A stretch of 64,000 nt of DNA from Candidatus Omnitrophota bacterium (GCA_020429915.1 JAGQKV010000002.1:329552-393551), one strand, 5' to 3'; shown: positions 7,742-29,721, counted from the stretch's first letter. Translations and numbers: made by a program. Notes: a model not told the origin generated them from the sequence alone.

Positions 7742-7745
7742 CGAA

Positions 7746-9112: not shown

Positions 9113-9113
9113 G

Positions 9114-11408: not shown

Positions 11409-11433
11409 GTCGACCTCGATTTCCCGGTCATCT

Positions 11434-11616
11434 TCACGGGGCTTTTCGCTTGTGTCTGTCCGCAGGATGCGGTTGATTCTTTCCGGCACACCAAATCAGT
11501 CCGAACAGGAGAAAACTGCCGGCTGTCAGTACGGTCAGATTCAAGATGGTCCGGTCGTCCAGGTGGATGCCTCCGCAGTGTGCCAGGTAGGTAACGGTTA
11601 AATGGTAGGCGTTCAT
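11434..11616 (-). CDS. Small hydrophobic hypothetical protein (60 aa) upstream of hypF
   Basis: ATG ORF MNAYHLTVTYLAHCGGIHLDDRTILNLTVLTAGSFLLFGLIWCAGKNQ... ends 25 nt before the hypF ATG and lies downstream of a strong promoter; no homology recognised; weak SD. Confidence 0.2.
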   Translation of the reverse strand: MNAYHLTVTYLAHCGGIHLDDRTILNLTVLTAGSFLLFGLIWCAGKNQPHPADRHKRKAP

Positions 11617-13180: not shown

Positions 13181-13235
13181 GATTTCTCCCCACCGGAATA
13201 ACCGGCGAACAAACATTCACTCCCGGTATACCCTG

Positions 13236-13264
13236 AATATAAACCCCTCCCACAACAGTGTCAA
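13236..13264 (-). promoter_or_regulatory. Candidate sigma70 promoter TTGACA-N17-TATATT upstream of the standalone receiver gene
   Basis: Minus strand reads TTGACActgttgtgggaggggttTATATT, ~55 nt upstream of the ATG at 13180. Confidence 0.45.
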
Positions 13265-13387: not shown

Positions 13388-16300
13388 TTACTCTTCCGCG
13401 CTGACAGAACCCTGTTGGTCCACCAGGTAGTAATCACCTTCATAATAAACCCGCCACACCGGATAATAGAAACTCCCCTCCGTATGGATCAGCTCCATTT
13501 CAGCGCCGTCTCGCATCTCGTGGATCATCCCCCGACGAACACGCCGGTCCGAGTCGGGATAGAGGTGCTTAGCGATTAAGCGCAAGGCCTGACGCTTACC
13601 GACGGGCATGTAGCTCATAGGATCCTTGACCCAGGAGACTTCCTTAAAGGCGCCGCTTTCAGCGTCGATTAAGGCGATGATGACGGTTCGCTGACGCATT
13701 TCCCGACGCATCCGGCGGCGCTCTTGACGCTGAGTCCGGTCAACCCGCTGACCTTCCTCACGCGTCAACTCGTCTCCGGATTCATTCAGCATACGCCCCT
13801 TGCGGAATCCACTGCGTAACTCCTGAACATTGTCCGCATCGACCGGCAGTTCAAACGGAATCAGATAGTAATCTCCGCGGAATCCGTCGACGAATATCGG
13901 TTTGCGCGGTATGGTCTGAACAAACAGCGCGGCAAACTCATCGTCGAACGGGACCAACTGCTCCTGCAGCCCCGTTATTGCCGCCTCAATTAATGCGAAG
14001 GCATCTTCATCAAGATGGTCCCGTACATACACATTTTTTTCCGAACCATCCTCCATTTCTACGGTCTGAAGCTGCAGGAAATTGCGCACGTGCTTTTTCA
14101 GACGCGGCACGCTGGCCACAATCGTTACCTGGCCGTTGTCATCTTGCGGTGGTTCCACTAGGGCCACGTAATGGTTGTACAACGGATCGTCCGGATTAAT
14201 TTCGGTCAGCGGCCAATAGTACATCGCAGTGAATTGATCCGCGGTGACATATGTGTCCTGACCGAGCCCCTGCGGATGCGGATCATTGATCCAGAAGCCG
14301 CAGATTCCAAAATCGGCGTTGCGGTAAGGATCGACCGTGGTTTGAATTCCTTTAATAATGACCCAATAGTCATAATTTCCGTACAAGGGAACGGCTCCCG
14401 GTATATGGACCGGATACCCGTCGACGCCGTGACCGTCGGGATTATCGCCTCCCCCTCCGGCGGGATAGGCCAGCCATTCGGCTATATCACGTAGCGCGTC
14501 CTCCAGGATAAGCCTGGCCTTTAGTCCGAAATTATAGTGAAACGGATTATATGGAGGATCAAGGTTCTGGATGGTCTGCCACAGGCCCCAGCCGTCCAGG
14601 CGCGCCAGTTCCTGATTGACAGCATAATTCATCGGCTGTCCGTACTCATATAACAGGGTCTGCATATTCATTAGCGGATCCTCCAGTTCGGGAGGCCCAT
14701 CCGGATCATCAAATCGGTTCCACCATATATATTGCAGGATCATCTTTAACACGGCCGGCCCGCTGAATTGCCTGACCGAATCGGCACCATTATCCAGGCT
14801 CTGGTGATACGGGAATTTCTCCACGTTCAATGTGAAGCCTCCCTCCACGACATAAATGGTGATAGTTTCCTGCTCGCTCAGTTGACCGTCCGTAATGGTG
14901 AAAGTCACGTCGTATTCTCCCGCGTCGCCCTTTTGCGTCTGCCAAGTGAATTTCGTATTGCCGGAGTCAAACACAGCCCCTTCAGGCAATACGTTCGCGC
15001 TGAAGGTCAGGGAATCCTCGTCCGGATCAGCGCCGGAAACTTCAAACATCAGCATCTCGCCCTCCTTCACTGTACGATCACCGATCGGGTCCAGGGCCGG
15101 CGGTGAATTGCCTGCCATCATCATGACCGTAACCGTAATCTCTTCGAAATCTGACTCGCTGCCGTCCGAGACGGAAACCGTCAGCAGATATGTCCCTGCG
15201 TCGCCTGTTTGCGGGGCGAGTATCAATGTGCTGCCGGAAAATGTCATCCAAGGCTGCCCGCCTGTCACGTTGAATGTCAGGTTATCTCCATCCGGATCAG
15301 TCGCCGTGAAGTTCAATGTTCGCGATTCTCCCTCCGCCAACATTTGATTGCCGACCGGATCGAGTTCCGGCGCCATATTCATGGGCAACGGAGTGACGAT
15401 GATGTCGAAGGTTTCCGTGTCGGTCAGATCGCCGTCACTCACATTTATGGAGACCGGATATGTGCCCGAGTCTCCAATCTGAGGAGTCAAGGTCAGCGTG
15501 GTCCCGTCAAAACTCATCCAACTTTCCGCACCGTTGAACATGAGGGTCAGACTGTCCCCGTCCAAATCACTGGCCGTAAAGGTGACATTAAGGGTCGCTC
15601 CCTCCTGGAGCGTTTGATCGGCTATCGGGTTCAGATCCGGTGCACGATTGGCTTGGGTAACCGTGATGGTAACAGTTTCCTGGTCCGTCCCCGTGTTACC
15701 GTCAGCGGCGGTGAAAGTCACCTGATAAGTTCCGGCGTCATTGTTGCCCGGAGTGCCCATAAAGGTCGTTCCGTCAAAATTCATCCAGGATTGAAGCGCC
15801 GACGTGGTCACAGTCACGGGATCTCCGTCAAGGTCGCTGGCTGATATCATAAAGCTGAGCATAGCATTTTCCGCGACCGATTTGTTACCGATCGTGGCCA
15901 GGACCGGATCGCGATTGACATTCGCCACGGTAATCTGCACGACCTCTGTGGCCGTATCCGTACCGTCGAAGATGGAAAACGTAACGTCAAAAACACCGGC
16001 GTCATTGAAGTCCGGCGTCGCGGTGAAAGTCGTGCCGACAAAGGACATGAATCCGGCCAACGGGGCCGCAGCGAATGTCAGACTGTCCCCGTCCGCATCG
16101 GAACCGGATACGTCGAAACTGAACGTGGCTCCTTCCATGGTCATTCGGTTACCGATGGGATTCAAGACCGGTGAGGTATTAGCGGTTGTTTGTACCGTAA
16201 CGGTTCCGTTGGTAATATTGTCTACGGGTGTGTTTCCTGACGCATCACTTCCGAAGTCCAGTCGTGTCAGGTTTATGGCAGATGTTCCCGGGGCCAGTGC

Positions 16301-17977
16301 CGTGAAGTTAATGACCAGCACCTGCCCGTTTGGTGCAGAAACGGCACTGAATCCGAATTGAGTGATTGCGGCTTGTCCCGGCGTGGTGAGATTTTCCACA
16401 CGCTGAAAGCCCGAGAAGGTCGAACCGTTTGATACGGAATTGGCCGTCAGAACGACAGGGTCCCAGGTGAGGGTCGTATCCACTCCGATGACATCCGCTG
16501 AATTATTGGAAAAGTCGATGGCGATATTAAACGAGTCGCCTTGCTGGACCGTGGCGCCACCCACCACCGCGTCTTGGACACCTCCTCCTGCTCCGGTTAC
16601 CGTAATGATCACCTCCTCCGAATCCATCGCTCCATTACCGTCGTCCGCGTCAAAGGTGACATTGTAGATACCGACTTGCCCAAGCGTCGGCGTCCAACTA
16701 AAGACCCCGGTCATCGGATCAAGCATGGCCCCGGCCGGCAAAGAAGTTGCCCCATAGGTCAAGCCATCGCCGTCGGCATCGGTGGCACTGAGCGTGAAGC
16801 TGAGATTCATTCCGGCCTGTACGGTCCGGCTTCCTATTGAATTCATTATAGGAGTATTGTTGGCGGGAACCTGGACTGTGACGGATCCTCCGGTGACGTT
16901 GTTGACCGGATAGGTGACGGTGTCCGTTCCAAAGTCAAGCCGGCTGAGGGTTAGGGCGGACGTTCCGGAGGCGATCGCCGTAAAATTGATTACGAAGACT
17001 TGTCCGCTGGATGCCGACACGGACGGACCGACGGAAAACTGGGCAATATTGGCTTGACCCGGCGTAGTCAGATTTTCGACATCCTGAAAGCCTGAGAAGG
17101 TCGAACCGTTCGACACGGAATTGGCCGCAAGGATGGCCGGATCCCAAGCCAGTATCGCGTCCACCCCCACCACATCCGCGACGTTATTGGAATACATGAT
17201 GGCGACGTCAAACGATTCCCCTTGACTCACCGTGGCACTGCCAACGACGGCATCATGGGCCGGGGGACCCACACGGGTAACGGTGATGGTAACGGGTGCG
17301 GAGTCAGTTCCTCCGTTACCGTCATCTACCGTAAATGTCACAACATGGAGCCCTTCGTCACCGGACTGCGGAGTCCAGCTGAAGGCGCCGGTGAAAGGGT
17401 CAATGGTTGCCATGCCCGGCAAGGGACTGGCCCCGTATGTCAAGGTATCGCCGTCCGCATCGGTTGCACTTATCGTAAAGCTGATAGCGTTCCCCACCGG
17501 CACGGATTGGCTGCCGACCGGATTAAGGACAGGAGCCGCGTTGCCGTTGTTGACCGTAACGAGACCCGCAAAGGGAATTGCGTTGGCCGGGATTGTCCCC
17601 GACGTATCCGACCCGAAGTCCAAACGGGTTACCTGCAGTTGCGAAGCTCCTGTGGGGGCGGCGGCCGACACTCTGAAGTTAAAGGTCAAAACGGTCCCGT
17701 CGGCATGGCTCATCGGAGACCCGAAGGTAAATTGCGCTATCCGGGCCTGACCCGGCACCGAAAGGTTAACGACCTTGGCGAAGGCCGCGAATTCAGCCCC
17801 GTTGTCAACGGAGTCAAGCGCCAGCACGGACGGATCGTAAACAAGCGTGGTGTCGACTGCCGAGACATCATCGACATTATTCGAAAACGCGATGGCAACG
17901 GATACGGACTGCCCTTGTTCCGCGGGAAGGTTTGTCAGTAAGGCATCCCATGCCTGCACCAAACCCGGGGACAACAT
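13388..17977 (-). CDS. Giant (at least 1529 aa) secreted multidomain protein: 3 x (cohesin-like + Ig-like/cadherin-like) modules, 4 further Ig-like repeats, and a ~550-aa C-terminal domain of unknown function
   Basis: Repeated motifs VSVAIAFSNNVDDVSAVDTTLVYDPSVLAL (cohesin-like) and NAAPVLNPVGSQSVPVGNAISFTISATDADGDTLTY (putative Ig / dystroglycan-type cadherin-like). The signal-peptide-like sequence KPNIKRIAWLLTLCGVMLSPGLVQA-WDA is encoded in frame upstream of the first ATG (see findings). Lies immediately downstream of gspD. Confidence 0.9.
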   Translation of the reverse strand: MLSPGLVQAWDALLTNLPAEQGQSVSVAIAFSNNVDDVSAVDTTLVYDPSVLALDSVDNGAEFAAFAKVVNLSVPGQARIAQFTFGSPMSHADGTVLTFNFRVSAAAPTGASQLQVTRLDFGSDTSGTIPANAIPFAGLVTVNNGNAAPVLNPVGSQSVPVGNAISFTISATDADGDTLTYGASPLPGMATIDPFTGAFSWTPQSGDEGLHVVTFTVDDGNGGTDSAPVTITVTRVGPPAHDAVVGSATVSQGESFDVAIMYSNNVADVVGVDAILAWDPAILAANSVSNGSTFSGFQDVENLTTPGQANIAQFSVGPSVSASSGQVFVINFTAIASGTSALTLSRLDFGTDTVTYPVNNVTGGSVTVQVPANNTPIMNSIGSRTVQAGMNLSFTLSATDADGDGLTYGATSLPAGAMLDPMTGVFSWTPTLGQVGIYNVTFDADDGNGAMDSEEVIITVTGAGGGVQDAVVGGATVQQGDSFNIAIDFSNNSADVIGVDTTLTWDPVVLTANSVSNGSTFSGFQRVENLTTPGQAAITQFGFSAVSAPNGQVLVINFTALAPGTSAINLTRLDFGSDASGNTPVDNITNGTVTVQTTANTSPVLNPIGNRMTMEGATFSFDVSGSDADGDSLTFAAAPLAGFMSFVGTTFTATPDFNDAGVFDVTFSIFDGTDTATEVVQITVANVNRDPVLATIGNKSVAENAMLSFMISASDLDGDPVTVTTSALQSWMNFDGTTFMGTPGNNDAGTYQVTFTAADGNTGTDQETVTITVTQANRAPDLNPIADQTLQEGATLNVTFTASDLDGDSLTLMFNGAESWMSFDGTTLTLTPQIGDSGTYPVSINVSDGDLTDTETFDIIVTPLPMNMAPELDPVGNQMLAEGESRTLNFTATDPDGDNLTFNVTGGQPWMTFSGSTLILAPQTGDAGTYLLTVSVSDGSESDFEEITVTVMMMAGNSPPALDPIGDRTVKEGEMLMFEVSGADPDEDSLTFSANVLPEGAVFDSGNTKFTWQTQKGDAGEYDVTFTITDGQLSEQETITIYVVEGGFTLNVEKFPYHQSLDNGADSVRQFSGPAVLKMILQYIWWNRFDDPDGPPELEDPLMNMQTLLYEYGQPMNYAVNQELARLDGWGLWQTIQNLDPPYNPFHYNFGLKARLILEDALRDIAEWLAYPAGGGGDNPDGHGVDGYPVHIPGAVPLYGNYDYWVIIKGIQTTVDPYRNADFGICGFWINDPHPQGLGQDTYVTADQFTAMYYWPLTEINPDDPLYNHYVALVEPPQDDNGQVTIVASVPRLKKHVRNFLQLQTVEMEDGSEKNVYVRDHLDEDAFALIEAAITGLQEQLVPFDDEFAALFVQTIPRKPIFVDGFRGDYYLIPFELPVDADNVQELRSGFRKGRMLNESGDELTREEGQRVDRTQRQERRRMRREMRQRTVIIALIDAESGAFKEVSWVKDPMSYMPVGKRQALRLIAKHLYPDSDRRVRRGMIHEMRDGAEMELIHTEGSFYYPVWRVYYEGDYYLVDQQGSVSAEE
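15922..17920 (-). repeat. Three tandem ~660-nt intragenic repeat modules (cohesin-like + Ig-like, ~220 aa each) within the giant gene; modules 2 and 3 are near-identical at the DNA level
   Basis: E.g. 16380-16560 vs 17040-17220 (cggcgtggtgagattttccacacgctgaaagcccgagaaggtcgaaccg vs cggcgtagtcagattttcgacatcctgaaagcctgagaaggtcgaaccg), roughly 85% identity by eye. These are protein-domain repeats, not CRISPR. Confidence 0.7.
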
Positions 17978-18240
17978 GACTCCGCACAGGGTGAGTAACC
18001 ATGCAATTCGTTTAATGTTAGGTTTTCCTCTCGTTTGGAGTCATCCGCGACGCCCTGGCCGGCTCCGTCATGAGCTCGCTTAGCGAACCATCCGCACGAT
18101 CCTGGACAGTATAATTGCCGGATGTGGAAAATACATTGGAAATTGTGTGGTTTTTGGAACCCGATCACGCAGCATAAATCGTTCGCAGACCGAATGCAAA
18201 GAAAATGAGAATCCGGGGAGAATTTACTGCAGCTAGACGC

Positions 18241-20460
18241 TTACTTGATAATATCGCCGACTTTAATATCGTACTTCTGATCCGTGATGGTCGCCGCGAC
18301 CAATTCGCCGCGAATCCTGGTCACTTCCAGGCTGGCGATGTATTCGGAATCGCGGTAGACATTGACCTTCTCTCCGATCATTAAAGACGTACTTTGGCTG
18401 AGGTGGATGATGACGAACGTCAAGTTCTTGTTGACGCGGCGAATGGATCCCAAGACTGCGCCGGATAGTCCATCACGATAGACGTCGTCCAAGTTTCCGT
18501 CACCGGCCTGTGCGGCCTGGGCCTTTGCCGCGAGCCTGATCCGGTCCGTGGCGATGCCGCCGGACTCATGGCCGTTACTATCTTGGGGCTGTTCCCAACG
18601 CTTGGCCGCCATATCGTAATCGTCATTATCCCCGCTAGAATAAGCCGCTCGGCTTCCGATCTCACCATTCCGGTTGTCCTGCTCATAAGCGTCTGTTGCG
18701 GACTGATGGCTATCTTTGAAAAATCGGCTCGGTTCCGGAGAGATGACCCCAACACGCTCGCGAGGCAAATATGTGGTCTGCGCGGGAATGTCTCCGGTAA
18801 TAATTTTGGGAGAAAGAAATATCACCGTCTCGGTTTTACGCACGAATTCGTCCTGACCACGAAAGGCCGCCCCGATAACCGGAATACTGCCCAGAACGGG
18901 CACTTTATTATGTGAATTGATCGTTTCATCCCGGATCAGTCCGCCGATAAAGATGGTGACGCCGTCTTTGACGGTCACCGTTGTTTCGGCCTCCGAAGTC
19001 TCGACGACCGGAATGGAATTGTTATTGCTGGTAATGACATTGCGCGTCACGGAACTGATCTCCGGCTTGACCTTCATGGTGATAAAATCGTCTCTATGGA
19101 TGGTGGGTGTGACAAACAATTTAACGCCGACTTCAATAAAATTGACGGATTCCGCTGTGGTTGTCGGCCCGGAAGCCGGCGTGGTCGTGGTGGATGTGAC
19201 ATACGGTTCGGTTGAACCCACGATAATCTTGGCCTCCTCGTTATTCAGGGTGGCGATACTCGGACTGGACAGGATATTGGTTTCCCCGATAGTTTCCAGG
19301 GCCTGGACCATAACCGCGTAATCATCCTTTTCCAGCGTACCGATGCTGAGCTGACCGCGTTTGTCTGTTGACTGCAGGACATCAAAGTTGCTGAGGAGGT
19401 TAAAATTGTGATGCTCCACCATCAGCTTTTCCCAATCCACACCCAGCTTGAACTCGTCGCTCAGGGTCACTTGCACGATCTTGGCCTCGATCAGCACTTC
19501 CAGATCTTTGTTGTCGAATGCGCGGACCATCTGGCGGATCTCGTTGAGTTTATCGGCCGTATCCGAGACGATTACCTTATTGGAACGTTTGTCCGTCCGA
19601 ACGGAGCCGATATCCGGCGTTAGCTCCTCGGTAATCTTCGCGGCGATATCTTCCGCCTCCGCGTAAACCAGGTCGAAAATCTCGGTGACAACCATTCCGT
19701 CCACCCAATTTACGATGTTTTCCATCTCATCCAACACATGCGGCTCGTCGGTCAGGATCAGCGTACTTGTCTTATCATCCGCCACCACTTTGCCGCCCGT
19801 ACTTTTCACCTGATTAAGCAAGGCAACGACGTCACCGATTTTGGCGTCTTCCAATCGTAAAATACGAGTCTCAAACTCTTGCCCGAAGGCACTGCGATAT
19901 TTGGCGAGATACTCCTCGGCCGTCATGATGTTAATGATGTTTCCGGTACGCAGAAAGGCCAGATTGTATGATTCAATAATGCTCTTGAGGGCCTCAAATA
20001 CCTCCACATTCTTAAGGTACACCGTGACTTTTCCCGAAACATTGGGGCTGACGATAATGTTGAGATCACTTTTTTGGGAGATGATCTTGATTAAATCCAG
20101 AATATCCATTTCTTTAACGTTGAGGACGTCAAAGACCATCATTTCGCTTTCCGCATCCCCATAGTTTGCCTTGACCCTGGATATATCGATCGTGCCGCTG
20201 ATTTCGGTCTTACCGTTTTGTCCGTTTTTGGCAATCTGCGTGCGGTGAAGTTCGTTGGTAATATCTCCATTGAAACGGTTTGCCGGCTGGTTCCGCTCAA
20301 TCCGCTGGATTCCGCGCAGTTGTCGGCGACCCTCGTCGAGACTATCGTTTTGAGCGTAAGCGGTTCCGGATAGCGCCGTAAACAGAACAAAAACAGGCAG
20401 AAGAAGTAGGGTGAGGTGGTATTGATTTTTGTGGTTGGGTGTTTTTTGGCATTCCTTCAT
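18241..20460 (-). CDS. gspD: Type II secretion system secretin GspD
   Basis: Signal peptide MKECQKTPNHKNQYHLTLLLLPVFVLFTALSGTAYA-Q (ATG at 20460 preferred over the track GTG at 20505); N0/N1-like domains and a secretin domain (VPVLGSIPVIGAAF); unusual ~130-aa C-terminal extension. Confidence 0.9.
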   Translation of the reverse strand: MKECQKTPNHKNQYHLTLLLLPVFVLFTALSGTAYAQNDSLDEGRRQLRGIQRIERNQPANRFNGDITNELHRTQIAKNGQNGKTEISGTIDISRVKANYGDAESEMMVFDVLNVKEMDILDLIKIISQKSDLNIIVSPNVSGKVTVYLKNVEVFEALKSIIESYNLAFLRTGNIINIMTAEEYLAKYRSAFGQEFETRILRLEDAKIGDVVALLNQVKSTGGKVVADDKTSTLILTDEPHVLDEMENIVNWVDGMVVTEIFDLVYAEAEDIAAKITEELTPDIGSVRTDKRSNKVIVSDTADKLNEIRQMVRAFDNKDLEVLIEAKIVQVTLSDEFKLGVDWEKLMVEHHNFNLLSNFDVLQSTDKRGQLSIGTLEKDDYAVMVQALETIGETNILSSPSIATLNNEEAKIIVGSTEPYVTSTTTTPASGPTTTAESVNFIEVGVKLFVTPTIHRDDFITMKVKPEISSVTRNVITSNNNSIPVVETSEAETTVTVKDGVTIFIGGLIRDETINSHNKVPVLGSIPVIGAAFRGQDEFVRKTETVIFLSPKIITGDIPAQTTYLPRERVGVISPEPSRFFKDSHQSATDAYEQDNRNGEIGSRAAYSSGDNDDYDMAAKRWEQPQDSNGHESGGIATDRIRLAAKAQAAQAGDGNLDDVYRDGLSGAVLGSIRRVNKNLTFVIIHLSQSTSLMIGEKVNVYRDSEYIASLEVTRIRGELVAATITDQKYDIKVGDIIK

Positions 20461-20810
20461 AACGGCCACCGACAAAATTAAACGCGCCAATATGGTCAGA
20501 TACACAAAATGCGTCTAAATCGACCGAGCGAAGATTGAAGGAATTAGCGGGGAAACATATTGGTCAGATATGGCTAAATCCGATCAATTCCTGTGTTTAA
20601 TTAGGGAAAACAGGATATTTACACGATATACCATAACCCGCGGCATGTCAAGCCGCCTATTTAGACTCTGAACGACACACTTTATGTCCGGGTTTGTCAG
20701 GGACTGTCCTGGATCATCCTGTATAGCTTAAACCCGCCTTGTAGGAAAACCGGCATATCCATGGGCGGTCAGCGATGAGATAATCCGTCCCGGGGCTCTC
20801 TTTCCGGCCT

Positions 20811-21344
20811 TTAGGGGTACATTTCAATCACTTCATCCCCGATCCGAAAAATTACTTTATCCTCGAAAATATCACTCAGTATAGCGCCCTTGATTTCATC
20901 GCCCAACGAAACGAAAAGCGTCTCCCGATTGATCAAGTCCTCCACCACGGCCTTGGGATTTTCGTCCCGGATGATCCCTACGAGACGCACACTCTGGGTA
21001 AATTCCATAACGGATTTCGCGCCTTCGAAATCGTCCGGTGGTTGCTCGGGCACCTCGCTTTGCTTCTCCCAGGGGGCTTCGAACAAATCCCGTTTGGTAA
21101 GATCCGTCAGGTAAGCTGCGAGTGGCTGTGCGCTTTTCAGCGTAGGATTGACCGGCTTCCCGGAGCGGGCCGGCACGCTGACGTCAATCGGCTCTCCTTG
21201 ACTCTCTCCCAAGGCGCCGCGGTACAGCTGTGCGGCATACAGCAAGGCGGCGCACAACCCCGCCAACAGCACACAATTAAGCCCCCGGAGCATCAGCATG
21301 CCCACGTTGCCGGCCTTGGATTGGAAAAGATGTGAATACAGCAC
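20811..21344 (-). CDS. GspC / PilP-like T2SS inner-membrane component
   Basis: 177 aa; N-terminal TM helix and a beta-rich C-terminal segment (VRLVGIIRD...ETLFVSLGDEIKGAILSDIFEDKVIFRIGDEVIEM) as in the GspC HR / PilP domain; its position between gspM-like and gspD supports this. Confidence 0.5.
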   Translation of the reverse strand: MLYSHLFQSKAGNVGMLMLRGLNCVLLAGLCAALLYAAQLYRGALGESQGEPIDVSVPARSGKPVNPTLKSAQPLAAYLTDLTKRDLFEAPWEKQSEVPEQPPDDFEGAKSVMEFTQSVRLVGIIRDENPKAVVEDLINRETLFVSLGDEIKGAILSDIFEDKVIFRIGDEVIEMYP

Positions 21345-21361
21345 ACGTCCCTTTCTGATAA

Positions 21362-21889
21362 CTATGGAATCAAGACCTTGCTAAGAATCAGCCTTATGCT
21401 GATCTCTTGAGAGCGCCGGGCCTTTTTGTCGTAATAAAACTCGTCTACCGTGAACATATACGGCTGCTTTTGCAGATGGTATAAGAAGTTTATGCTGTTT
21501 ACAAAGTTAGTGGTAATATTCAAACTTACCGAGAATTCGTTATAAAACTTGTTTTCGTTCACTCGTTGCGGTTGCAGACTGGCAATACGGACATCAAAAT
21601 TCCTGGCGACCTCTTCGATTTCCTTGAGTATTCCGGACATAACCTGTTCATTTCGTCCCTCCTGCCGGAAAAGATTCTGATAGTACTCATAATTGGTTGT
21701 CTTGGCCATACCGCGTGCAATGACACGTCGTTTTTCATTCAACAACTGCCGCTGGGCAACAATCTGATCCTCAGCGGCCTCCTGCCGGCGGCGCATCGGG
21801 ACGACTACGAATTGATAGCTGAGATAAACGGCCCCCAGGATCACCGTTGCGACAAACAGATTGCGTTCTCTATTAGACAGCGCGGCCAT
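21362..21889 (-). CDS. GspM / PilO-like T2SS component
   Basis: 175 aa, single N-terminal TM, coiled-coil and a periplasmic domain; position after gspL-like. Confidence 0.55.
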   Translation of the reverse strand: MAALSNRERNLFVATVILGAVYLSYQFVVVPMRRRQEAAEDQIVAQRQLLNEKRRVIARGMAKTTNYEYYQNLFRQEGRNEQVMSGILKEIEEVARNFDVRIASLQPQRVNENKFYNEFSVSLNITTNFVNSINFLYHLQKQPYMFTVDEFYYDKKARRSQEISIRLILSKVLIP

Positions 21890-21891
21890 GA

Positions 21892-23331
21892 CTAGGGCTC
21901 CTCTTCATCACACAGGGATGCCGTAAATTTGAAATCCGTGACCTGCATTGTGAAAATGCGACGGGACGTAGCGAATTCAAGATTGACCTTCCGAAACATC
22001 GGTTCATTGACCAACCGGGCTTGAAAATCATTCAAGGCCTCCCGCGTCTGCGCATAACCTTGTATCGTAAACACACATCGTTCATTAAGGTACAGTGAGT
22101 TCAGGGAAATATCCTCAGGCACAAGCTTCGCCAACTGGCCCATGACTTCCGGAATAAAGATGCGTCCGTCGACATACTGATCGAAATATTCAATAAGCCT
22201 CATCTTTCGTTTGGCTTCATCGATCTGCGGATCGAGCTCACTGACGGCAGAACGCAGCCGCTCTACCTGCTTCTCTTTTTCACTCAATCTGATCGACCAA
22301 ACAAACAATGCGGTGGCGTACAGCAGCATGACGCACAAAAAGAGTTTGATCAACTCACGTTTAAGAATCCTATTTTGCTTCGAAGCACGGATGGAGCGCG
22401 GCAGCAAACTGACCACTTGCTTAGGGTCCGCAAAATGGATTCCCATCGGCGCCGTCAGCGTTAACCCCGCATCTGCTTCAAGGACCGCATCACGCAAATG
22501 GCGGGGCAGGCTCACGCCGTCTGTCGGCGATATCGATTCGCAGGGCATTTGCAATTGCCCCTCCAACTGTCCGATAAACTCCTGCAAATCACTCTGTCCG
22601 GAGACTACGACAAACCGTGATAACGGACCGCCCATTCTTTCGCTTTCGTAGTATTTGATGCTCAAGGCTATCTGCTGGATCAATTCATCAGGCGTAGAGC
22701 GCAATTCCCTAAGGCCTACATTGACATTGCGGGAAAATATCAATCTTTGTTTCTCTAAAAAGCAAATCTCTGTATGATTCAAATCGATATTGCATAAGGC
22801 CAGCGGTGATTTGGCATCGAGACGGTTGCGGCCCGCCTGGTACCGGAACCATCCCAGCAATCCGAATGAACTGATGGTTATTCCGGCCAGCGTAAAACGT
22901 GCCTGCTCGGCCAGATCGATAAAACGTTCGGTGACATCTTTGGGTATGACGATCAGCAGGACCTTGGTATATCCTTCTTCATCACGGCTAATGACCCGAA
23001 TGTCGTATTCGACCTCATCCATGGTGTAAGGTGTCTGACTGCTTATCTGAATCTCCGCCATCTGTCGAAGCTCACGCTCGTCCTGGGACGGAAGGCGTAA
23101 TACCTTGAGAATCGCCAAATGCCGAGGGAGAACCAGATATGCCCCGCCTGCTTTGACGGCCTTGAGCCTGGCAAGTTCCCGCAGTGCCGGCAGCAGCTCC
23201 GCGTCGGCGTCTCCATTGACATGTTGAACCTCCAAAGCAGTCATCTGGCCTTGTCCGCGCACATACCGAGCCCGCACAAGCTTGAGGCAGTTGTCCGTCA
23301 TTGCTATCGCTGTAGGAATGTTTTTACTCAT
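21892..23331 (-). CDS. GspL-like protein (cytoplasmic actin-like PilM-type domain, TM helix, periplasmic PilN-like domain)
   Basis: 479 aa; domain order and a central TM (LIKLFLCVMLLYATALFVWSI); position between gspK and gspM-like. Confidence 0.7.
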   Translation of the reverse strand: MSKNIPTAIAMTDNCLKLVRARYVRGQGQMTALEVQHVNGDADAELLPALRELARLKAVKAGGAYLVLPRHLAILKVLRLPSQDERELRQMAEIQISSQTPYTMDEVEYDIRVISRDEEGYTKVLLIVIPKDVTERFIDLAEQARFTLAGITISSFGLLGWFRYQAGRNRLDAKSPLALCNIDLNHTEICFLEKQRLIFSRNVNVGLRELRSTPDELIQQIALSIKYYESERMGGPLSRFVVVSGQSDLQEFIGQLEGQLQMPCESISPTDGVSLPRHLRDAVLEADAGLTLTAPMGIHFADPKQVVSLLPRSIRASKQNRILKRELIKLFLCVMLLYATALFVWSIRLSEKEKQVERLRSAVSELDPQIDEAKRKMRLIEYFDQYVDGRIFIPEVMGQLAKLVPEDISLNSLYLNERCVFTIQGYAQTREALNDFQARLVNEPMFRKVNLEFATSRRIFTMQVTDFKFTASLCDEEEP

Positions 23332-23344
23332 ATCCTTGAGCCCG

Positions 23345-24436
23345 TCAATTGCGTTTCCAATACACCATATCCAAATTGTCGCGACCGATCACCGCTTCGA
23401 TCGTCGATGTGACCATCCGGTTTTGATCGACACCCGTTACAAAAACCCGAACGAAATTCGCTTTACGGGTCCGGTGCAAATTAGACATCCGGATAAACAG
23501 TGCCTGCTCCCTGCGGTTGAGCATGAGACCGTCCGCCTCGATAATCCGGTCATCGCCTGTATTCTCGATTCGATCATCGCCGCGGCGGTAATCCAGCATT
23601 TTTCGTACCAAGGACTCGGCATCGTTCTCATCGGTACCGCTGGCGCGTCCGGAAACCGCGATAGCGAGTGAGCGCAACATGATTTCGGGAGCCGTGTTAA
23701 AATTGATCCGCAACTCGCCACCCGGCGGAAATAAGGTCACGTACGGCTTTAAGTCGGCAAACAACTCCGGAGTGACCCCGCGAATCAGCAGAAGTTCTTC
23801 CAAGGATTCGAACTGCATATTCTTGGGTCGATAAGGCTTCTCCAATCCTTGGTAATATTCCAATTCCGCTCCGTACTCCGAATCATTCAAGACGTCATCC
23901 GGATCACGCCAGTCAATCACCCCGTGCGTCACCGTAAGGGCGACTTCTTCCTCATACCCCAACTCCTGGATGAGCGTACTCAGGATAAGGAAGTTATTTT
24001 TGGTAACCGTATTCAGATTAATGCGCCGCTCCTCGTCGGCCATTCCGTAGGCATGCACCGGCTTCGCCCCATCCGCTTGCCGATGCCAATAGCCGATTTC
24101 AAAGTAACCGTCGCCGAGTTCATGCCGCTGGAAGAGATCTTCGGCCGTCTTGTCTGCGACCGGCCGGACTGCACACCAGGTCAGGCTGTCGAATTTGGCA
24201 GACTCTTCATCCGCCGTATCTTCCTCGATAAGATGCAGCGCATACTGAACGCCGCCCCAGGCCAAATACTTCGACTTAATCTTCCCGATAAAATTGTTGG
24301 CCAAGGCAAATTCTATGCGCGTACTTTGTCCGAGGCTTAGCGATAAGAAGCTGAGCAGAACCAGGACCCACAGAACAGTGATAATCACCATCCCCCCGCG
24401 ATTGCCGGCCAAGCGGCCTAACCTTAAGCGCCTCAT
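23345..24436 (-). CDS. gspK: T2SS minor pseudopilin GspK
   Basis: 363 aa; N-terminus RGGMVIITVLWVLVLLSFLSLSLG is typical of GspK; large periplasmic domain. Confidence 0.8.
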   Translation of the reverse strand: MRRLRLGRLAGNRGGMVIITVLWVLVLLSFLSLSLGQSTRIEFALANNFIGKIKSKYLAWGGVQYALHLIEEDTADEESAKFDSLTWCAVRPVADKTAEDLFQRHELGDGYFEIGYWHRQADGAKPVHAYGMADEERRINLNTVTKNNFLILSTLIQELGYEEEVALTVTHGVIDWRDPDDVLNDSEYGAELEYYQGLEKPYRPKNMQFESLEELLLIRGVTPELFADLKPYVTLFPPGGELRINFNTAPEIMLRSLAIAVSGRASGTDENDAESLVRKMLDYRRGDDRIENTGDDRIIEADGLMLNRREQALFIRMSNLHRTRKANFVRVFVTGVDQNRMVTSTIEAVIGRDNLDMVYWKRN

Positions 24437-25167
24437 CTCAACCGGCTCCAGACCTGTGGGGGGATCAGCACTTCGTTATCGAAAGTGACGATCCCGTCCG
24501 GATTATCGGGAGGAACCAAATTGAGCTCAATCCGCACGCTGAGAGGTAAATCATTACCTTCCCACTCGTCTGCCCAACTGACGGAGGCGGCCTCATTTTC
24601 TTCTGCGACTCCCAGCGTACTGTACGAGAATCGTAACCCTTCCGGTTTAACATGAATGGCAATCACTTCCAGGTCATCATCATCGGTAATATCCGCATCG
24701 CGTTGACCGGTGACGAAATCGGGGAAATCCGTCTGACGACGGACGAGCAGCCGGGTTTGTTCCGGCTGACTGTCGCCGAGAGTGACACGCACGTTCTTTT
24801 TGTAGGCCTGATAGTTGACAATGGTCTTGTGAACCTTCCCGGATTCCTCCGCCAATAAAAAATAGCTCACCGCTTTTAGACCGTTGGGTGTGGGTGCCAT
24901 AAAGGTTATTTTGTCCTTTGTTCCCATGAAACTGAATCTTTCGGGATACGATTCGGACAGATTATACTTCACCATATTTTCAATTTCCCGGCTCATCATG
25001 TCCAGGGACCAGTAGGCCTGACGGTAAACTTCTTGCGAGGCATCGGTTTTGTAACTCAACCTGACGCCGCCCCAGAAAACCGAATAAATGGTCAGCATGA
25101 CCACCGACAGCAGGCTCAGCCCAAGAATTAACTCGATAAGGGTAAAGCCTTCCCGCCGCCGGATCAT
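24433..25167 (-). CDS. T2SS minor pseudopilin GspJ-like
   Basis: Prepilin-type N-terminus REGFTLIELILGLSLL (start at internal ATG 25167). Confidence 0.65.
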   Translation of the reverse strand: MIRRREGFTLIELILGLSLLSVVMLTIYSVFWGGVRLSYKTDASQEVYRQAYWSLDMMSREIENMVKYNLSESYPERFSFMGTKDKITFMAPTPNGLKAVSYFLLAEESGKVHKTIVNYQAYKKNVRVTLGDSQPEQTRLLVRRQTDFPDFVTGQRDADITDDDDLEVIAIHVKPEGLRFSYSTLGVAEENEAASVSWADEWEGNDLPLSVRIELNLVPPDNPDGIVTFDNEVLIPPQVWSRLR

Positions 25168-25568
25168 GGGGCTGTCCGTACGTACGTCGCGATCTGAAAG
25201 CGACTGGTCTTGCCACCATTTTGCCACTCCGCGGTCAAGGTATCGATCTCCAGATCACTCGCCTCCGGACTGGCCGCAGCGTCGATGGTAAAAATAAACG
25301 CGTCCGGCTCGTCATTCCCGCCTTCCGGCCTGCCAGACGGTCCCGCGCCCTGAATACGCGATTCCTTCAACAAACGGGTCATTTCCGTGTCGGCGGCCAT
25401 CGCGGCCTGGGTGTATTGAGCGGCATAGCGGGCCCCCCGCAGACTGGAGGTCATTGACTGGATGATCACACCCAGACTGATCGACATGATGACCAATGCC
25501 AACAGGACCTCCAGGAGAAGTGTTCCACGCCGGTCACGAGTCAAGCGGCTTCCTGTGTGATAGTTCAA
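25164..25568 (-). CDS. T2SS minor pseudopilin GspI-like
   Basis: 134 aa; RRGTLLLEVLLALVIMSISLG prepilin-type N-terminus. Confidence 0.65.
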   Translation of the reverse strand: MNYHTGSRLTRDRRGTLLLEVLLALVIMSISLGVIIQSMTSSLRGARYAAQYTQAAMAADTEMTRLLKESRIQGAGPSGRPEGGNDEPDAFIFTIDAAASPEASDLEIDTLTAEWQNGGKTSRFQIATYVRTAP

Positions 25569-26104
25569 CTGTAACCCTCCGAATCAAAACTGCGAATGAA
25601 ACCGCGCTGGATGCGCGTCGAAATAATTTTACAGCGCTCTTGCTTGCACACGGCCAACTCCGCCTTGTCCATCCGTCCGTCCGGATAAAATGTCAGCCCT
25701 GCGATAGTCGCATCGATCTTCACGACCAATTCCGCCGGCACTCGTCGCTTGGCCCCCATGCGTCCGGAGAGCCGCTCAAACTCGTTCGACGCCTCTTCCA
25801 CGCTGGGATCCGCGCTACGGACCTCCGTCAGCCAATACTCCGTCAATTCCGTATTGAATTCAAGACGCACCGGCCGGCTTCTGGTAATCGCCCGGCTTTG
25901 CGCATAGCGCATCAGGTTGATCAGTTCAGCGGCACTTTTTTCGAATTGATATTTGGTGAGAGATTTTGATAGGCTCGGGGCACTTAATCCCGCGATGACC
26001 GTCAGAATAAGCAAAACCAGAATGATCTCGACCAACGTAAATGCCCGAACGTCGTCCGCCAACTGACGGTACGGGTCCGGCCAAATTCTTTCGTAATTCG
26101 CCAT
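25565..26104 (-). CDS. T2SS minor pseudopilin GspH-like
   Basis: 179 aa; VRAFTLVEIILVLLILTVIAGLSAPS prepilin-type N-terminus. Confidence 0.65.
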   Translation of the reverse strand: MANYERIWPDPYRQLADDVRAFTLVEIILVLLILTVIAGLSAPSLSKSLTKYQFEKSAAELINLMRYAQSRAITRSRPVRLEFNTELTEYWLTEVRSADPSVEEASNEFERLSGRMGAKRRVPAELVVKIDATIAGLTFYPDGRMDKAELAVCKQERCKIISTRIQRGFIRSFDSEGYS

Positions 26105-26138
26105 AACATCCTCATCCCCGCCTCGCTGCCAGATTTAT

Positions 26139-26573
26139 TCACGAGTTCCAGTTCGTGATATCGTCGGCGCTTTCCTTACCGTCGGCTCCGAACGAATACA
26201 AATCGAAAGACTCCGGATTATTGACTCCCGGAGACACATATACATAGGAATTTCCCCACGGGTCAGAAGGGACATCCTTTTTCTTAAGGTACGGACCATT
26301 CCAGGTATCGCCCGAACCGATGCCCGAATCCGGCTTACGAATGAGCGCCTTCAACCCCTGATCCGTCGTGGGATAACCGCCATTTTCAATCTCAAACATA
26401 TCCAAGGCCATAGGTATCGCCACTTCGATATCGTTCTTGGTCGCCTTCAACTGCGCGTCTTTGGACCTTCCCGCGAAATTCGGTATGACCATGGCGGCCA
26501 ATATCCCGATGATGATGACGACCAGCATTATTTCAACAAGTGTAAAACCAGCGGTTCTTCGGTTCAAATTCAT
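26139..26573 (-). CDS. gspG: T2SS major pseudopilin GspG
   Basis: 144 aa; MNLNRRTAGFTLVEIMLVVIIIGILAAMVIPNF is canonical for GspG. Confidence 0.9.
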   Translation of the reverse strand: MNLNRRTAGFTLVEIMLVVIIIGILAAMVIPNFAGRSKDAQLKATKNDIEVAIPMALDMFEIENGGYPTTDQGLKALIRKPDSGIGSGDTWNGPYLKKKDVPSDPWGNSYVYVSPGVNNPESFDLYSFGADGKESADDITNWNS

Positions 26574-26587
26574 ACTTTGTCCTCCTA

Positions 26588-27823
26588 TTATGAAATCAGC
26601 AGGTTCATTTGGAAAATCGGGAGAAGCATCGCCACCACCATAAAACCGACGATGCCCACAATAATCATAAGGACCAGCGGCCCGACCAAAGATACCAAGG
26701 TCTTCATGATATCATCGGCAAGCCGTTCCGAAGTGTGCGCAACTTTATTGAATCCCTTGCCGAGATTTCCGGTCTCTTCTCCCACGGTAATAATATTGAT
26801 GGCCATTTCCGAAAAAAAAGAGCATTTCTTTAGGGCGGTATGCACGGCAGCCCCCTGACTGACTTCCCTGGGGACATGACTGAACTCCTCCCTGAGAATG
26901 TTGTTTTGGACGGTGCTACAGGCCGAATTCAGCGCGGAGGTGATATCCAGACGGCTTTCGATCAGGGTCCCCAACGTGCGGCTGACCCTTCCGAGCTCGA
27001 CCATCCGGATAAATCCTCCCAGAAGAGGAATGCGCAGTTTAAACTCATCGATCGCGGCGGCCCCCTGAGGCGTCCCCGCGTACGCCGTGCCGCCCGCAAT
27101 CAAGCCGATCACAGCCGCCAGCAGCACCCACCAGTACCCGGCGAAAAATTCGCTTATACCGATCAGGACCATGGTAACGGTCGGCAACTCTTGGCCGAGG
27201 TCGTCAAACATGACCGTAATGCGCGGAATGACCCATGTCAACAGAACAAAGACGGTGGCGATTCCCACCAGTAAAATCAGAAAAGGATAAGCCAGACTCG
27301 ACAGAACGCGCCCCTGCACTTCCTGCTCCTTCTCGAGATAATTGGCCAACCGGTCGAGAATCATGGCCAGCTGGCCGCTGGCCTCGCCGGTTCGCACCAG
27401 CTCCACATAAAAGTTTGAAAACAATTTCCGATGACCCCGCAAGGCTTCGGAAAGCGAGCTGCCGTTCTCCAGGGCCGAATAGATCCTTTGATACAATTCT
27501 TTGAGCGCAGGACGATCGGTTTGCCTGCGGACAATCGCCATCGCACGCAGAATAGGCACCGAGGCATCGACCAAGTCGCTCAGCTGCCGGGTAAAAACGA
27601 CGATATCCCTGGGGCGGACCCCGCTCACTCCCAATGTGGCGACACGCGACCGCTGCCCCGCTTTCTTCTTGGGCTTCGCGCCTGCCATGGCAAGGGACAC
27701 ATCGATCGGCGTGTAACCGGACTGGATCACTTTACGGATGGCCATCTCCTTGTTTTCCGCCTCGATCGTTCCCTGCACGATATTCCGGGGACCCTGCTTC
27801 GCTCTGTAATTAAATGTATTCAT
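26588..27823 (-). CDS. gspF: T2SS inner-membrane platform protein GspF
   Basis: 411 aa; duplicated GspF domains, three TM helices. Confidence 0.93.
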   Translation of the reverse strand: MNTFNYRAKQGPRNIVQGTIEAENKEMAIRKVIQSGYTPIDVSLAMAGAKPKKKAGQRSRVATLGVSGVRPRDIVVFTRQLSDLVDASVPILRAMAIVRRQTDRPALKELYQRIYSALENGSSLSEALRGHRKLFSNFYVELVRTGEASGQLAMILDRLANYLEKEQEVQGRVLSSLAYPFLILLVGIATVFVLLTWVIPRITVMFDDLGQELPTVTMVLIGISEFFAGYWWVLLAAVIGLIAGGTAYAGTPQGAAAIDEFKLRIPLLGGFIRMVELGRVSRTLGTLIESRLDITSALNSACSTVQNNILREEFSHVPREVSQGAAVHTALKKCSFFSEMAINIITVGEETGNLGKGFNKVAHTSERLADDIMKTLVSLVGPLVLMIIVGIVGFMVVAMLLPIFQMNLLIS

Positions 27824-27830
27824 AGCCGTT

Positions 27831-29546
27831 TTAGCCTATCTCATCGTGAGTGACGCGCAGCACTTCCTGGGGAGTGGTCAGCCCCAGTTTGACTTTCTCC
27901 CACCCGTTATGGTTCAAAGTCCGCATGCCGCGCCGGAGCGCGAGCTTTTTGATATCACCCGCTGTCGCCCGGTTGATGATCAAACTCTGAATTTCATCAT
28001 TGAGAACGAGGAACTCGTAGATCCCCTCCCGACCGCTGTAACCGGAGAATTTGCAGGCTTCGCATCCGGCACTGTCATAAATGACATCACCCTCCTTGAT
28101 TCCCACCAACGGATCAATATCCTCCAGCATACTGCCGGTTACCGTCACCGGCATGCGGCATTCGGGACATATCTTGCGCACCAAGCGCTGGGCGATAAAA
28201 CACTGCACCGTACTGGTAATCAGGTAAGGTTCGATCCCCATATCCAGCAACCGCGCAACTCCGCTGGCGGCATCATTGGTATGAAGCGTGGAAAAAACGA
28301 GGTGTCCGGTCAAAGCGATCTGAACCGCGATCTCCGCCGTTTCCCGGTCACGGACCTCCCCGACCATCATCACATCCGGGTCCTGGCGCAACATCGAACG
28401 CAGTCCGTTGGCAAAGGTCAGTTTGATTTCCGGATTCACCTGAATCTGTGTAATACCCGGCAGCTGATACTCGATGGGGTCTTCAATGGTAATGATCTTC
28501 TTCTCGTCACTGTTGATCGAGGAGAGGGCGGCGTACAAAGTTGTCGTCTTCCCCGAACCGGTGGGACCTGTCAAAAAGATTATGCCGTGCGGTTTGCTGA
28601 GTAAATTATCGACGATATGCCGTTCGCCGGGAGAAAACCCCAAATCGTCGAGCCTATAGAGCGTCGTTGTGTTCAGGAGGCGCATGACCACCGTTTCACC
28701 GTGCGGTGTCGGCATGAATGATATGCGCAAATCGATATCGATATCCTTAATGCGGACCTTGAACCGCCCGTCCTGCGGCCGTCGTTTTTCGGCAATATTC
28801 AGGTTAGATAAAATCTTGATGCGAGAGTTGATTGAATCCTTGAAATATTTAATATTCGACGGGGCCTTAGCGTCGAACAACACACCGTCAACCCGATAAC
28901 GTATACGCAGTTGGTCTTCAAAAGGTTCGATGTGAATATCCGAAGCGCGCTCCTGATAAGCTTCCAGTAATATTTGATTCAAGAATTTGCTGATCGAGGC
29001 CTCAGAATCCTGTTCGTCGATCTCCTCGACCACCGACTCAGCAATCTCGGTTTGCACGCCGCCCATCATCTTGTCGATGGTCTCCGCCCCCAGCCCGTAA
29101 TATTTGCGGATGGCCTCCAGGATATCCTTTTCACTCGTGCGGATCGGTTTCAAGCGGTACTTTACCACCAGTTGCAATTCATCCAGGGTTTGCACGTCCT
29201 CCGGATCGACCATGGCGATGCTTAAAACATTGTCATTCAACTGGACCGGTATGACCTTGTAATGATTGGCAAACTTGGAAGGAATCAAATCGATAACGGG
29301 TCGCGGGATTTCTGCTGTCTTCAGTTGAAGGCCTCCGGCGGCTCCTGAGTTTGCAGTGGAAAGAGACCGGTTCTGCTCGGCCTTCATGAACCCCATCTCC
29401 ACAAGGAGTTCCCCGAGACGTTCCCCACGCCCGTTTTGTTGGGCCTCCAGGGCCAGCTCCAGTTGATGCGGGGTGATGATGCCGCGCTCCAAAAGTTTTT
29501 GTCCGTACAAAGGCTGTCCGTCATTGTTGTCATTTGCTCTGATCAT
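27831..29546 (-). CDS. gspE: T2SS ATPase GspE
   Basis: 571 aa; GspE N-terminal domain, Walker A GPTGSGKTT, Asp box, His box, tetracysteine motif (CPECRMP...CEAC). Confidence 0.95.
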   Translation of the reverse strand: MIRANDNNDGQPLYGQKLLERGIITPHQLELALEAQQNGRGERLGELLVEMGFMKAEQNRSLSTANSGAAGGLQLKTAEIPRPVIDLIPSKFANHYKVIPVQLNDNVLSIAMVDPEDVQTLDELQLVVKYRLKPIRTSEKDILEAIRKYYGLGAETIDKMMGGVQTEIAESVVEEIDEQDSEASISKFLNQILLEAYQERASDIHIEPFEDQLRIRYRVDGVLFDAKAPSNIKYFKDSINSRIKILSNLNIAEKRRPQDGRFKVRIKDIDIDLRISFMPTPHGETVVMRLLNTTTLYRLDDLGFSPGERHIVDNLLSKPHGIIFLTGPTGSGKTTTLYAALSSINSDEKKIITIEDPIEYQLPGITQIQVNPEIKLTFANGLRSMLRQDPDVMMVGEVRDRETAEIAVQIALTGHLVFSTLHTNDAASGVARLLDMGIEPYLITSTVQCFIAQRLVRKICPECRMPVTVTGSMLEDIDPLVGIKEGDVIYDSAGCEACKFSGYSGREGIYEFLVLNDEIQSLIINRATAGDIKKLALRRGMRTLNHNGWEKVKLGLTTPQEVLRVTHDEIG

Positions 29547-29692
29547 GGCATTCTATCCGTTGAAGGCCGATTCCCCCCCCTGCCCGTTGTTATGCGTTCG
29601 CTGCTCTTCGCTGATGACAGGCGGCAATATTTGGCACGATGATTTAGTTGATACGTCAAAACAGACGTTTACCGGGCCAAGATGTAACAGGA

Positions 29693-29721
29693 TTATATCA
29701 AAATTGTCGAAAACCGTAAAA
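29693..29721 (-). promoter_or_regulatory. Candidate sigma70 promoter (TTTACG-N17-TATAAT with TGn extended -10) for the gsp operon
   Basis: Minus strand reads TTTACGgttttcgacaattttgaTATAAT about 150 nt upstream of the gspE ATG. Confidence 0.3.

Follow-up and report, generated by a model that had tools for sequence, protein, structure and literature searches.

A cohesin-repeat protein gene behind a type II secretion operon in Candidatus Omnitrophota, and the C-terminal module that it carries

Does a bacterial secretion system export the large protein whose gene lies directly behind its own operon? The question is raised by a 64,000 nt stretch of a Candidatus Omnitrophota bacterium genome (GCA_020429915.1, JAGQKV010000002.1:329552-393551; hereafter the window), in which a check of the open reading frames (ORFs) confirmed 12 consecutive minus-strand genes running from position 29546 to position 13388. 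These comprise gspE-F-G-H-I-J-K, a gene for a PilM/PilN-type GspL, gspM, a weakly assigned gspC and the secretin gene gspD of a predicted type II secretion system (T2SS), followed by a large gene encoding cohesin and He_PIG domains. An earlier reading, generated by a model from the sequence alone (the sequence-only reading), had put forward the product of this last gene as candidate dedicated cargo of the T2SS. Our comparative analysis tilts, with reservations set out below, towards a model in which a T2SS operon received an inserted cohesin gene that would be co-transcribed with gspD and whose product would be exported by the T2SS as a surface scaffold or adhesin.

The large gene and its position behind gspD

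Pfam analysis of the window covered 38 long candidate ORFs, mostly of more than 150 aa, with the larger ORF taken at each locus and overlapping antisense ORFs left out. All of the gsp ORFs that had been described on one strand in canonical order were present and had Pfam or NCBIfam matches, with a weak assignment for GspC. By its profile matches the cluster is a true T2SS, as had also been read from the sequence, and not a type IV pilus, because GspG and GspK are present and score above curated cut-offs, GspE and GspF prefer gsp over pil models, and PilT and PilA are lacking.

The large gene (13388-18016, minus strand) encodes a predicted exported protein of 1542 aa in which three cohesin plus He_PIG modules (16178-17950) are followed by four further He_PIG/tandem-95/PKD-like repeats (14843-16177; NF012211 131.8 > 90) and a C-terminal module (13391-14842) that is discussed below. 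Pfam assigned three stretches to the cohesin family (PF00963; 87.1 bits, E = 1.6e-24) and seven to He_PIG/Big_9 (He_PIG 217 bits), in addition to PKD matches, and this is the same layout of three cohesin plus immunoglobulin-like (Ig-like) modules and four extra Ig-like repeats that had been read from the sequence. The unannotated C-terminal part, previously given as ~550 aa, measured 485 aa (residues 1046-1529). The cohesins had no sequence-level match to solved cohesin structures, and searches of the large protein against Pfam and NCBIfam detected neither a SecA nor a HEAT domain.

When delimited from the ATG at 17977 the ORF encodes 1529 aa and lacks a signal peptide, which appears only when translation begins at an ATT codon at 18016 (signal peptide encoded at 18016-17951). 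Read back in frame to a TGA stop codon, the sequence upstream of the ATG encodes IKRIAWLLTLCGV, then MLSPGLVQA-WD. In the corresponding locus of the metagenome-assembled genome HK-STAS-OMNI-4 (L005; the L designations are ours), the window's ATG is replaced by ATT while the upstream reading frame is conserved, and in a second relative (L061) the orthologue has a normal ATG start and a signal peptide, KKRLWLLILCGAVGCPGLAQA, that aligns with IKRIAWLLTLCGVMLSPGLVQA of the window. On account of this conserved frame, the ATG-to-ATT change in L005 and the alignment with the L061 signal peptide, the gene most likely starts at the rare ATT codon at 18016 and would encode a precursor of 1542 aa that begins with a Sec signal peptide. 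A Shine-Dalgarno-like sequence, GAGAGGA, lies about nine nt before this codon. Gene callers start the protein too far downstream and lose the signal peptide, such that the database copy begins with MSPGLVQAW. An eight-codon upstream ORF (18018-18044, minus strand; MTPNERKT-stop, ATG...TAA), conserved in L005, ends 1 nt before the ATT, an arrangement that suggests possible termination-reinitiation coupling or regulation at the level of the start codon.

The gap between gspD and the large gene, earlier given as 240 nt, measures 263 nt when the gene is taken to start at the ATG and 224 nt when it starts at the ATT. A coding-strand scan of this gap detected neither a sigma70-like promoter nor a terminator-like hairpin, in agreement with the sequence-only reading, which had seen no convincing promoter there. 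A structured RNA or terminator at this position was rejected as a candidate, as none emerged from the terminator scan or from a folding test in which the RNA of the 224-nt gap was less structured than shuffled controls (z = +1.9). The three best sigma70-like matches on the coding strand were all intergenic. One precedes gspE in the gap between gspE and the phosphoenolpyruvate carboxykinase gene (29692-29720; TTTACG-17-TATAAT, with TG), one precedes gspD (20623-20651; TTGACA-17-TATCGT) and one precedes a downstream response regulator gene (13236-13264; TTGACA-17-TATATT, 11/12 matches), all on the minus strand. The second of these falls within a gspC-gspD gap of 350 nt; it is conserved in both L005 and L061, in the latter with an intact -35 hexamer. 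Because a promoter-like site is conserved before gspD and none was found before the large gene, the arrangement suggests that gspD and the large gene share one transcript. Co-transcription of apparatus and substrate, as first proposed, thus remains plausible specifically with gspD, while the promoter-like site in the gspC-gspD gap separates this pair from the genes upstream.

To place the large gene in its evolutionary context, related loci were compared. In a scan of species-representative genomes, Candidatus Omnitrophota bacterium HK-STAS-OMNI-4 (JACKFL01) proved to carry a copy of the C-terminal module that is 86% identical, and its locus (L005) is syntenic with the window (GspL, GspM, GspC and GspD at 90%, 94%, 83% and 94% protein identity, respectively). 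There, the gene behind gspD encodes a 1982-aa counterpart of the large protein with about five extra repeats (5504-11452), and small ORFs and the genes for HypF and HypD come next. The secretin of L061 is 79% identical, and in this locus GspM, GspC and GspD are followed by an 1854-aa cohesin/He_PIG protein (4657-10221), a response regulator and HypF. These close relatives differ in how many Ig-like repeats they encode, with proteins of 1542, 1982 and 1854 aa amid flanking genes that are 79-94% identical, as would be expected, judged from these sequences, of a surface protein that evolves fast. A more distant locus (L062; long-form secretin, 73% identical) carries genes for a 1373-aa CotH/LTD protein and a Porin_5 protein after gspD, and in an Omnitrophica WOR_2-type locus of a distant Omnitrophota genome (L063; secretin ~62% identical and short, at 506 aa) the genes from gspF to gspD run directly into response regulators. 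These comparisons indicate that the T2SS operon is ancestral in Omnitrophota and conserved across the phylum. Since the L063 operon runs straight into response regulators, the large gene is a lineage-specific insertion at the junction between gspD and the response regulator gene. In the window this regulator is a receiver-only protein (12758-13216, minus strand), and because the same kind of gene directly follows gspD in L063, it may be a conserved regulatory partner of the T2SS operon.

The large gene co-occurs with a longer form of the secretin. The window's gspD (18241-20460, minus strand) encodes 739 aa with their own signal peptide, starting at the ATG at 20460 rather than at a GTG at 20505, while most secretin homologues in Omnitrophota have ~500-550 aa. 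The difference consists of a C-terminal extension of ~185 aa, with a disordered region and a small beta domain, and of an extra N-terminal stretch. The three other long-form secretin genes examined (L005, L061 and L062) are also followed by a gene for a large secreted-type protein. Pfam identified the Secretin domain (159.5 bits), two Secretin_N domains and type_II_gspD_N0 (34.7 > 27) in the window protein, and database entries for its homologues name them GspD of Candidatus Omnitrophica; the NCBIfam scores for GspD (248.6 bits) and PilQ (241.1 bits) do not separate the two systems by the secretin alone. The leader of gspD contains a 46-nt block, ATTTAGCCATATCTGACCAATATGTTTCCCCGCTAATTCCTTCAAT (20534-20579, minus strand), in which the window, L005 and L061 do not differ at any position (100% identity), although the surrounding leader has diverged in L061. 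It could form a hairpin, for which the three genomes provide no covariation, and Rfam returned nothing in the window, the gspD leader included.

Proposed export by the T2SS and the case for an incidental neighbourhood

A word-indexed search for homologues of the C-terminal module had returned two and suggested that the module was extremely rare, a view overturned by an exhaustive profile search of 1.84 billion representative sequences, which identified 501 (at least 501 clusters at 50% identity), 193 of them with E ≤ 1e-30. The module is almost always located at the extreme C-terminus of host proteins of 300-2700 aa, and most members of full length have an N-terminal signal peptide. Their N-terminal parts are diverse and include NosD/beta-helix, CARDB, PKD, dockerin, papain, subtilase, trypsin, M28, GH2, lectin and Hcp domains. 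To look for T2SS genes, all eleven Gsp proteins served as tblastn and phmmer queries against 52 metagenome loci and six further loci (L001-L006). None of the 52 metagenome loci had T2SS genes near the family member, and beyond the relatives of the window such genes were detected only in L002/L003; L064 and L065 are likewise family loci without a T2SS operon. Clustering of neighbouring ORFs identified no conserved partner gene. The idea that the module is a T2SS sorting signal was rejected, given that, among the loci checked and apart from the window's own relatives, T2SS genes lie nearby only in L002/L003 and that one member (L030) occurs in an archaeal-type context.

Two of these loci merit description. 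In L002 (12005-17640), a family gene with a CBM96/disaggregatase-like N-terminus precedes four or five genes for prepilin-type proteins, in some of which the predicted leader is unusually long (~55 aa ahead of GFTLLE), and a PilM-PilN fusion; on sequence grounds, the module is here linked to a pseudopilus system for a second time and independently of the window. In L030 (6968-15238), the module is carried by a 1433-aa protein with subtilase and NosD/beta-helix regions, with a PKD plus PGF-CTERM protein encoded nearby, so the module appears to cross the boundary between bacteria and archaea.

Two of the nearest cohesin-type relatives (P0004 and P0006) share the cohesin, He_PIG and module architecture of the window protein. 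They lie in a type of cluster that recurs in other metagenome-assembled genomes, with L059 (1-23822), L060 (1-23975) and L001 (1-22340, labelled 'uncultured Planctomycetales') as instances, and that encodes CotH/LTD, Porin_5 and LTD plus Dockerin_1 proteins, one to three cohesin/He_PIG/module paralogues and a giant HEAT-repeat protein of 3561+ to 4903 aa. These HEAT-repeat giants resemble the 'Archaeovorin' class of Omnitrophota. In L059 and L060 the gene for the LTD plus Dockerin_1 protein adjoins the cohesin/He_PIG/module genes, and such an adjacent dockerin protein supports the prediction of a true cohesin-dockerin system. A dockerin protein was not detected among the 38 long ORFs of the window itself.

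In the model that we prefer, a promoter between gspC and gspD would drive a joint transcript of gspD and the large gene. The encoded cohesin protein would cross the inner membrane via Sec and fold in the periplasm, after which the pseudopilus would push it through the adjacent long-form secretin. Outside the cell the protein would act as a scaffold or adhesin, with the cohesins recruiting dockerin-bearing partners and the C-terminal module binding or anchoring. The host, as a member of the Planctomycetes-Verrucomicrobia-Chlamydiae (PVC) group, is assumed to be diderm, which the presence of a secretin gene fits.

The alternative that survives best, which we regard as possible but clearly the less probable account, is that the neighbourhood is incidental. 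The large gene would then occupy a permissive site behind a housekeeping T2SS that serves other substrates, and its Sec-exported product would reside in the periplasm or envelope or leave by another exit. Such an explanation is consistent with the intact T2SS operon of L063, in which the large gene is missing, with the module family being almost never found beside T2SS genes and having one member in an archaeal-type context, and with the closest cohesin-type relatives (L059, L060 and L001), which have no T2SS gene within 10 kb. It accounts less well for the large secreted-type proteins that directly follow a long-form gspD in four sequences that represent three or more lineages, namely a cohesin protein in the window, L005 and L061 and a CotH/LTD protein in L062. 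The CotH/LTD and Porin_5 pair that follows the secretin in L062 recurs ahead of the cohesin-module genes of L001 and L060, which loosely ties those clusters to the T2SS. In addition, no separate promoter or terminator signal was detected between gspD and the large gene, and a folded multidomain protein of 1.5 thousand amino acids (kaa) needs a route across the outer membrane, of which no other is encoded nearby.

Several points nevertheless count against export by the adjacent T2SS as we propose it. Adjacency by itself is not secretion, and synteny shared by three close relatives with 79-94% identical secretins is weak evidence for functional coupling. The module family is mostly not linked to T2SS genes in the loci surveyed, so the module cannot be a T2SS-specific signal, and the occurrence in L063 of a T2SS operon that lacks the large gene implies that the T2SS must have other substrates. 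It is for this last reason that 'dedicated' cargo is probably the wrong description as far as the apparatus is concerned, although cargo remains plausible. The promoter scan relied on a sigma70-like consensus that may not fit this host, as promoters are uncharacterised in Omnitrophota, and the putative catalytic positions of the C-terminal module were assigned from sequence register and not from coordinates. Finally, neither a dockerin protein nor a prepilin peptidase was detected among the 38 long ORFs of the window.

Fold and putative active site of the C-terminal module

The module had no sequence-level match in Pfam, NCBIfam or the PDB, peptidase families included. AlphaFold2 with a three-sequence alignment gave an unusable model (predicted local distance difference test score (pLDDT) 36.7), and a 48-sequence alignment yielded a model with a pLDDT of 90.9 and a predicted template modelling score of 0.88. 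In this model the module is a lobe with a C39/papain-like fold (14138-14842, minus strand) followed by an alpha/beta lobe at the C-terminus (13391-14137, minus strand), which resembles PepSY (YpmB) weakly and contains a charged helical linker. Structural neighbours include active enzymes, such as the pseudomurein endoisopeptidase PeiR and staphopain.

At the position of the papain catalytic Cys, where the first helix begins, the window protein has a Ser (Ser 1072, in the motif SGPAV), and the family has Ser (40 members), Thr (27), Cys (25) or Ala (4). The catalytic His position, which opens the core strand and is placed by register just before an invariant Trp, is a Tyr in the window protein and is mostly Asn (99 members) and less often His (21) in the family. 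None of 150 family members combines Cys with His, and a canonical Cys-His peptidase was rejected on the basis of these alignment-column statistics. Because this canonical dyad is absent, a binding or anchoring role is favoured over that of an active protease, although the persistence of Ser, Thr or Cys makes a non-canonical enzyme possible.

We consider it unlikely that the module is an active peptidase that uses a Ser, Thr or Cys nucleophile to process or release the large protein or to cleave a target on another cell; this proposal is limited to the module and would be consistent with T2SS export. A nucleophilic residue occupies the papain Cys position in 92 of 99 aligned members, with few Ala or Asn, which is unlike full degeneration, and the Asp of an 'NDP' strand is near-invariant (140 of 147 members). 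Other His residues are also well kept in the family (H146 in 77 members and a His at position 167 in 88), and the activity of PeiR and staphopain points the same way. These features have to be set against the prevalence of Asn at the register-assigned His position, the Tyr found there in the window protein, the lack of any member with both Cys and His and the absence of a sequence match to any peptidase family in Pfam, NCBIfam or the PDB. The window protein furthermore has Gln in place of the His of a 'GIH' motif that most members carry.

Degenerate C39 domains are known from ABC exporters, including the C39-like domain (CLD) of HlyB. Those domains are N-terminal in a transporter, whereas the module described here is C-terminal in a secreted protein, is fused to an extra alpha/beta lobe, has no detectable sequence relationship to them and belongs to a family that retains Ser, Thr or Cys at the nucleophile position. 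The module represents a large and widespread family that is matched by no curated profile library searched. A more speculative proposal, which we hold to be rather doubtful, is that Omnitrophota acquired the module, possibly from archaea, and that it would be a new attachment or self-processing module displayed via the T2SS, where it would tether a cohesin-dockerin complex to the cell's own envelope or to that of prey.

The secretion apparatus and related systems

The remaining components of the apparatus, all encoded on the minus strand, were identified with differing confidence. The ATPase gene gspE (27831-29546; Pfam T2SSE, 439 bits) has TIGR02533 (gspE) as its best NCBIfam match at 606.5 bits, slightly below the cut-off of 630, compared with 563 for pilB. 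The N-terminus of GspE (29051-29546) contains an MshEN-type domain of the cyclic di-GMP-binding class that passed its cut-off (NF053729; 47.5 versus 38 bits), which suggests control of the secretion ATPase by cyclic di-GMP. The exact GspE sequence of the window is indexed in 41 assembly-collection blocks (ENA ERZ27309265 is an example), and all 24 contigs that were read carry this sequence. For the inner-membrane platform gene gspF (26588-27823; two T2SSF domains), TIGR02120 was the best match at 340 bits and outscored PilC models, yet stayed under its own cut-off. The major pseudopilin gene gspG (26139-26573; T2SSG and N_methyl) scored 141.8 for TIGR01710, above the cut-off of 88.85.

Four minor pseudopilin genes follow. 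The product of the gspH-like gene (25565-26104) matches Pfam GspH (33.3 > 21) and N_methyl, and the gspI-like gene (25164-25568), whose start is uncertain, is assigned partly by position, as its TIGR01707 score of 26.4 bits is under the cut-off. The gspJ-like gene (24433-25227; probable start 25167) encodes an N_methyl protein with the motif GFTLIEL and weak matches to GspJ and the Verru_Chthon cassette C family, and gspK (23345-24436) is well supported (T2SSK_1st 82.1 > 26.2; NF037980 108 bits). The GspL-equivalent (21892-23331) is a PilM-PilN fusion (PilM_2 plus PilN; TIGR01175), and the gspM/PilO-like gene (21362-21889) matches both T2SSM (29.4 > 27.8) and PilO (28.6). The gspC-like gene (20811-21344; 177 aa) scored 24.5 bits for NF041515 (GspC_delta) against a cut-off of 150, and an ORF of equal position and size is present in L005, L061 and L063. 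In keeping with the earlier remark that gspO is missing from the cluster, a prepilin peptidase (GspO/PilD) was not detected in the window, as Peptidase_A24 matched none of the 38 long ORFs and the GxGDxK motif was absent from a six-frame scan of all 64 kb; the gene may lie elsewhere in the genome.

PilM/N/O-like L and M components are common outside Proteobacteria. That the machine is instead a type IV pilus or other PVC-type pilus, with the large protein as a pilus-associated adhesin, is very improbable: it would suit the matches of the GspL-equivalent to PilM_2, PilN and an Amuc_1101-family PilM-like model, the PilO match of GspM, the near-equal GspD and PilQ scores of the secretin (with a weak match to Amuc_1098) and the MshE-type N-domain of GspE, but GspG exceeds its equivalog cut-off, GspK (T2SSK_1st) is present, gsp models beat pil models for both GspE and GspF, PilT/PilU, a PilA-type pilin and PilY1 were not detected in the cluster by the Pfam/NCBIfam searches, and the gene order is that of a canonical gsp operon.

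Experimentally proven examples of a T2SS with an adjacent substrate gene are Klebsiella pul and pulA, Pseudomonas Hxc and LapA, and Escherichia coli T2SS-beta and SslE (YghJ). As in these systems, a large, predicted Sec-dependent exoprotein is encoded next to a gsp operon, and the two can be read as apparatus and cargo. It differs from them in that this gene is downstream of gspD and possibly co-transcribed with it, that GspL is a PilM/N fusion and that there is no GspO nearby. Cellulosomal scaffoldins and non-cellulosomal cohesin-dockerin systems also present multiple cohesins on one exported polypeptide, but in the large protein the cohesins alternate with He_PIG domains, there is no CBM, SLH or sortase anchor, and no dockerin is found in the window.

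Within Omnitrophota, T2SS-like loci (gspD, gspE, gspF and prepilin-type genes) have been described upstream of giant surface-protein genes, and the giant proteins are reported to contain C39-like and dockerin-type regions, with folds of the cohesin/dockerin type (West-Roberts et al. 2023, 10.1101/2023.11.21.568195); a 2026 preprint repeats the observation of a T2SS-like locus with a giant protein (10.64898/2026.06.07.730766). The arrangement of a T2SS and a neighbouring large surface protein is thus already published for the phylum, and the locus described here is a small, canonical version of it, in which a secretion locus again precedes a large, predicted extracellular adhesion-type protein. 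The published giants, which have many transmembrane segments, span 25 kb or more and 25 kaa or more, carry a SecA-like domain and contain dockerins, whereas the gene described here has 4.6 kb and encodes 1.5 kaa with a predicted cleavable Sec signal peptide, no detected SecA-like or HEAT domain, and cohesins. The operons also differ, as the published loci include rcpC and rotamase genes and the window has a canonical gspE-D operon without either. Because the large protein has cohesins and not dockerins, it could partner dockerin proteins.

Elsewhere in the window, three further minus-strand genes were noted. One encodes a bacterial homologue of vitamin-K-dependent gamma-carboxylase (VKGC; 58251-59609; HTTM 210 bits, VKGC lumenal domain 106 bits), and two encode candidate surface proteins, of 575 aa with six PKD domains (47026-48753) and of 869 aa with DUF3857 and transglutaminase-like domains (38817-41426).

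Omnitrophota are uncultured, very small and probably predatory or host-dependent bacteria, among them a documented member that preys on archaea, and their mode of attachment to other cells is a question of interest. The chief by-products of this analysis are the C-terminal module family, the rare ATT codon at which the large gene most likely starts, and the leader element conserved ahead of gspD. The locus offers a small and tractable counterpart to the giant genes of the phylum, with a cohesin protein that could be expressed for dockerin-binding tests. As dockerin proteins and 'Dockerin-type' giant proteins exist in Omnitrophota, it also hints that cohesin-dockerin pairing may be an organising principle of the Omnitrophota surface.

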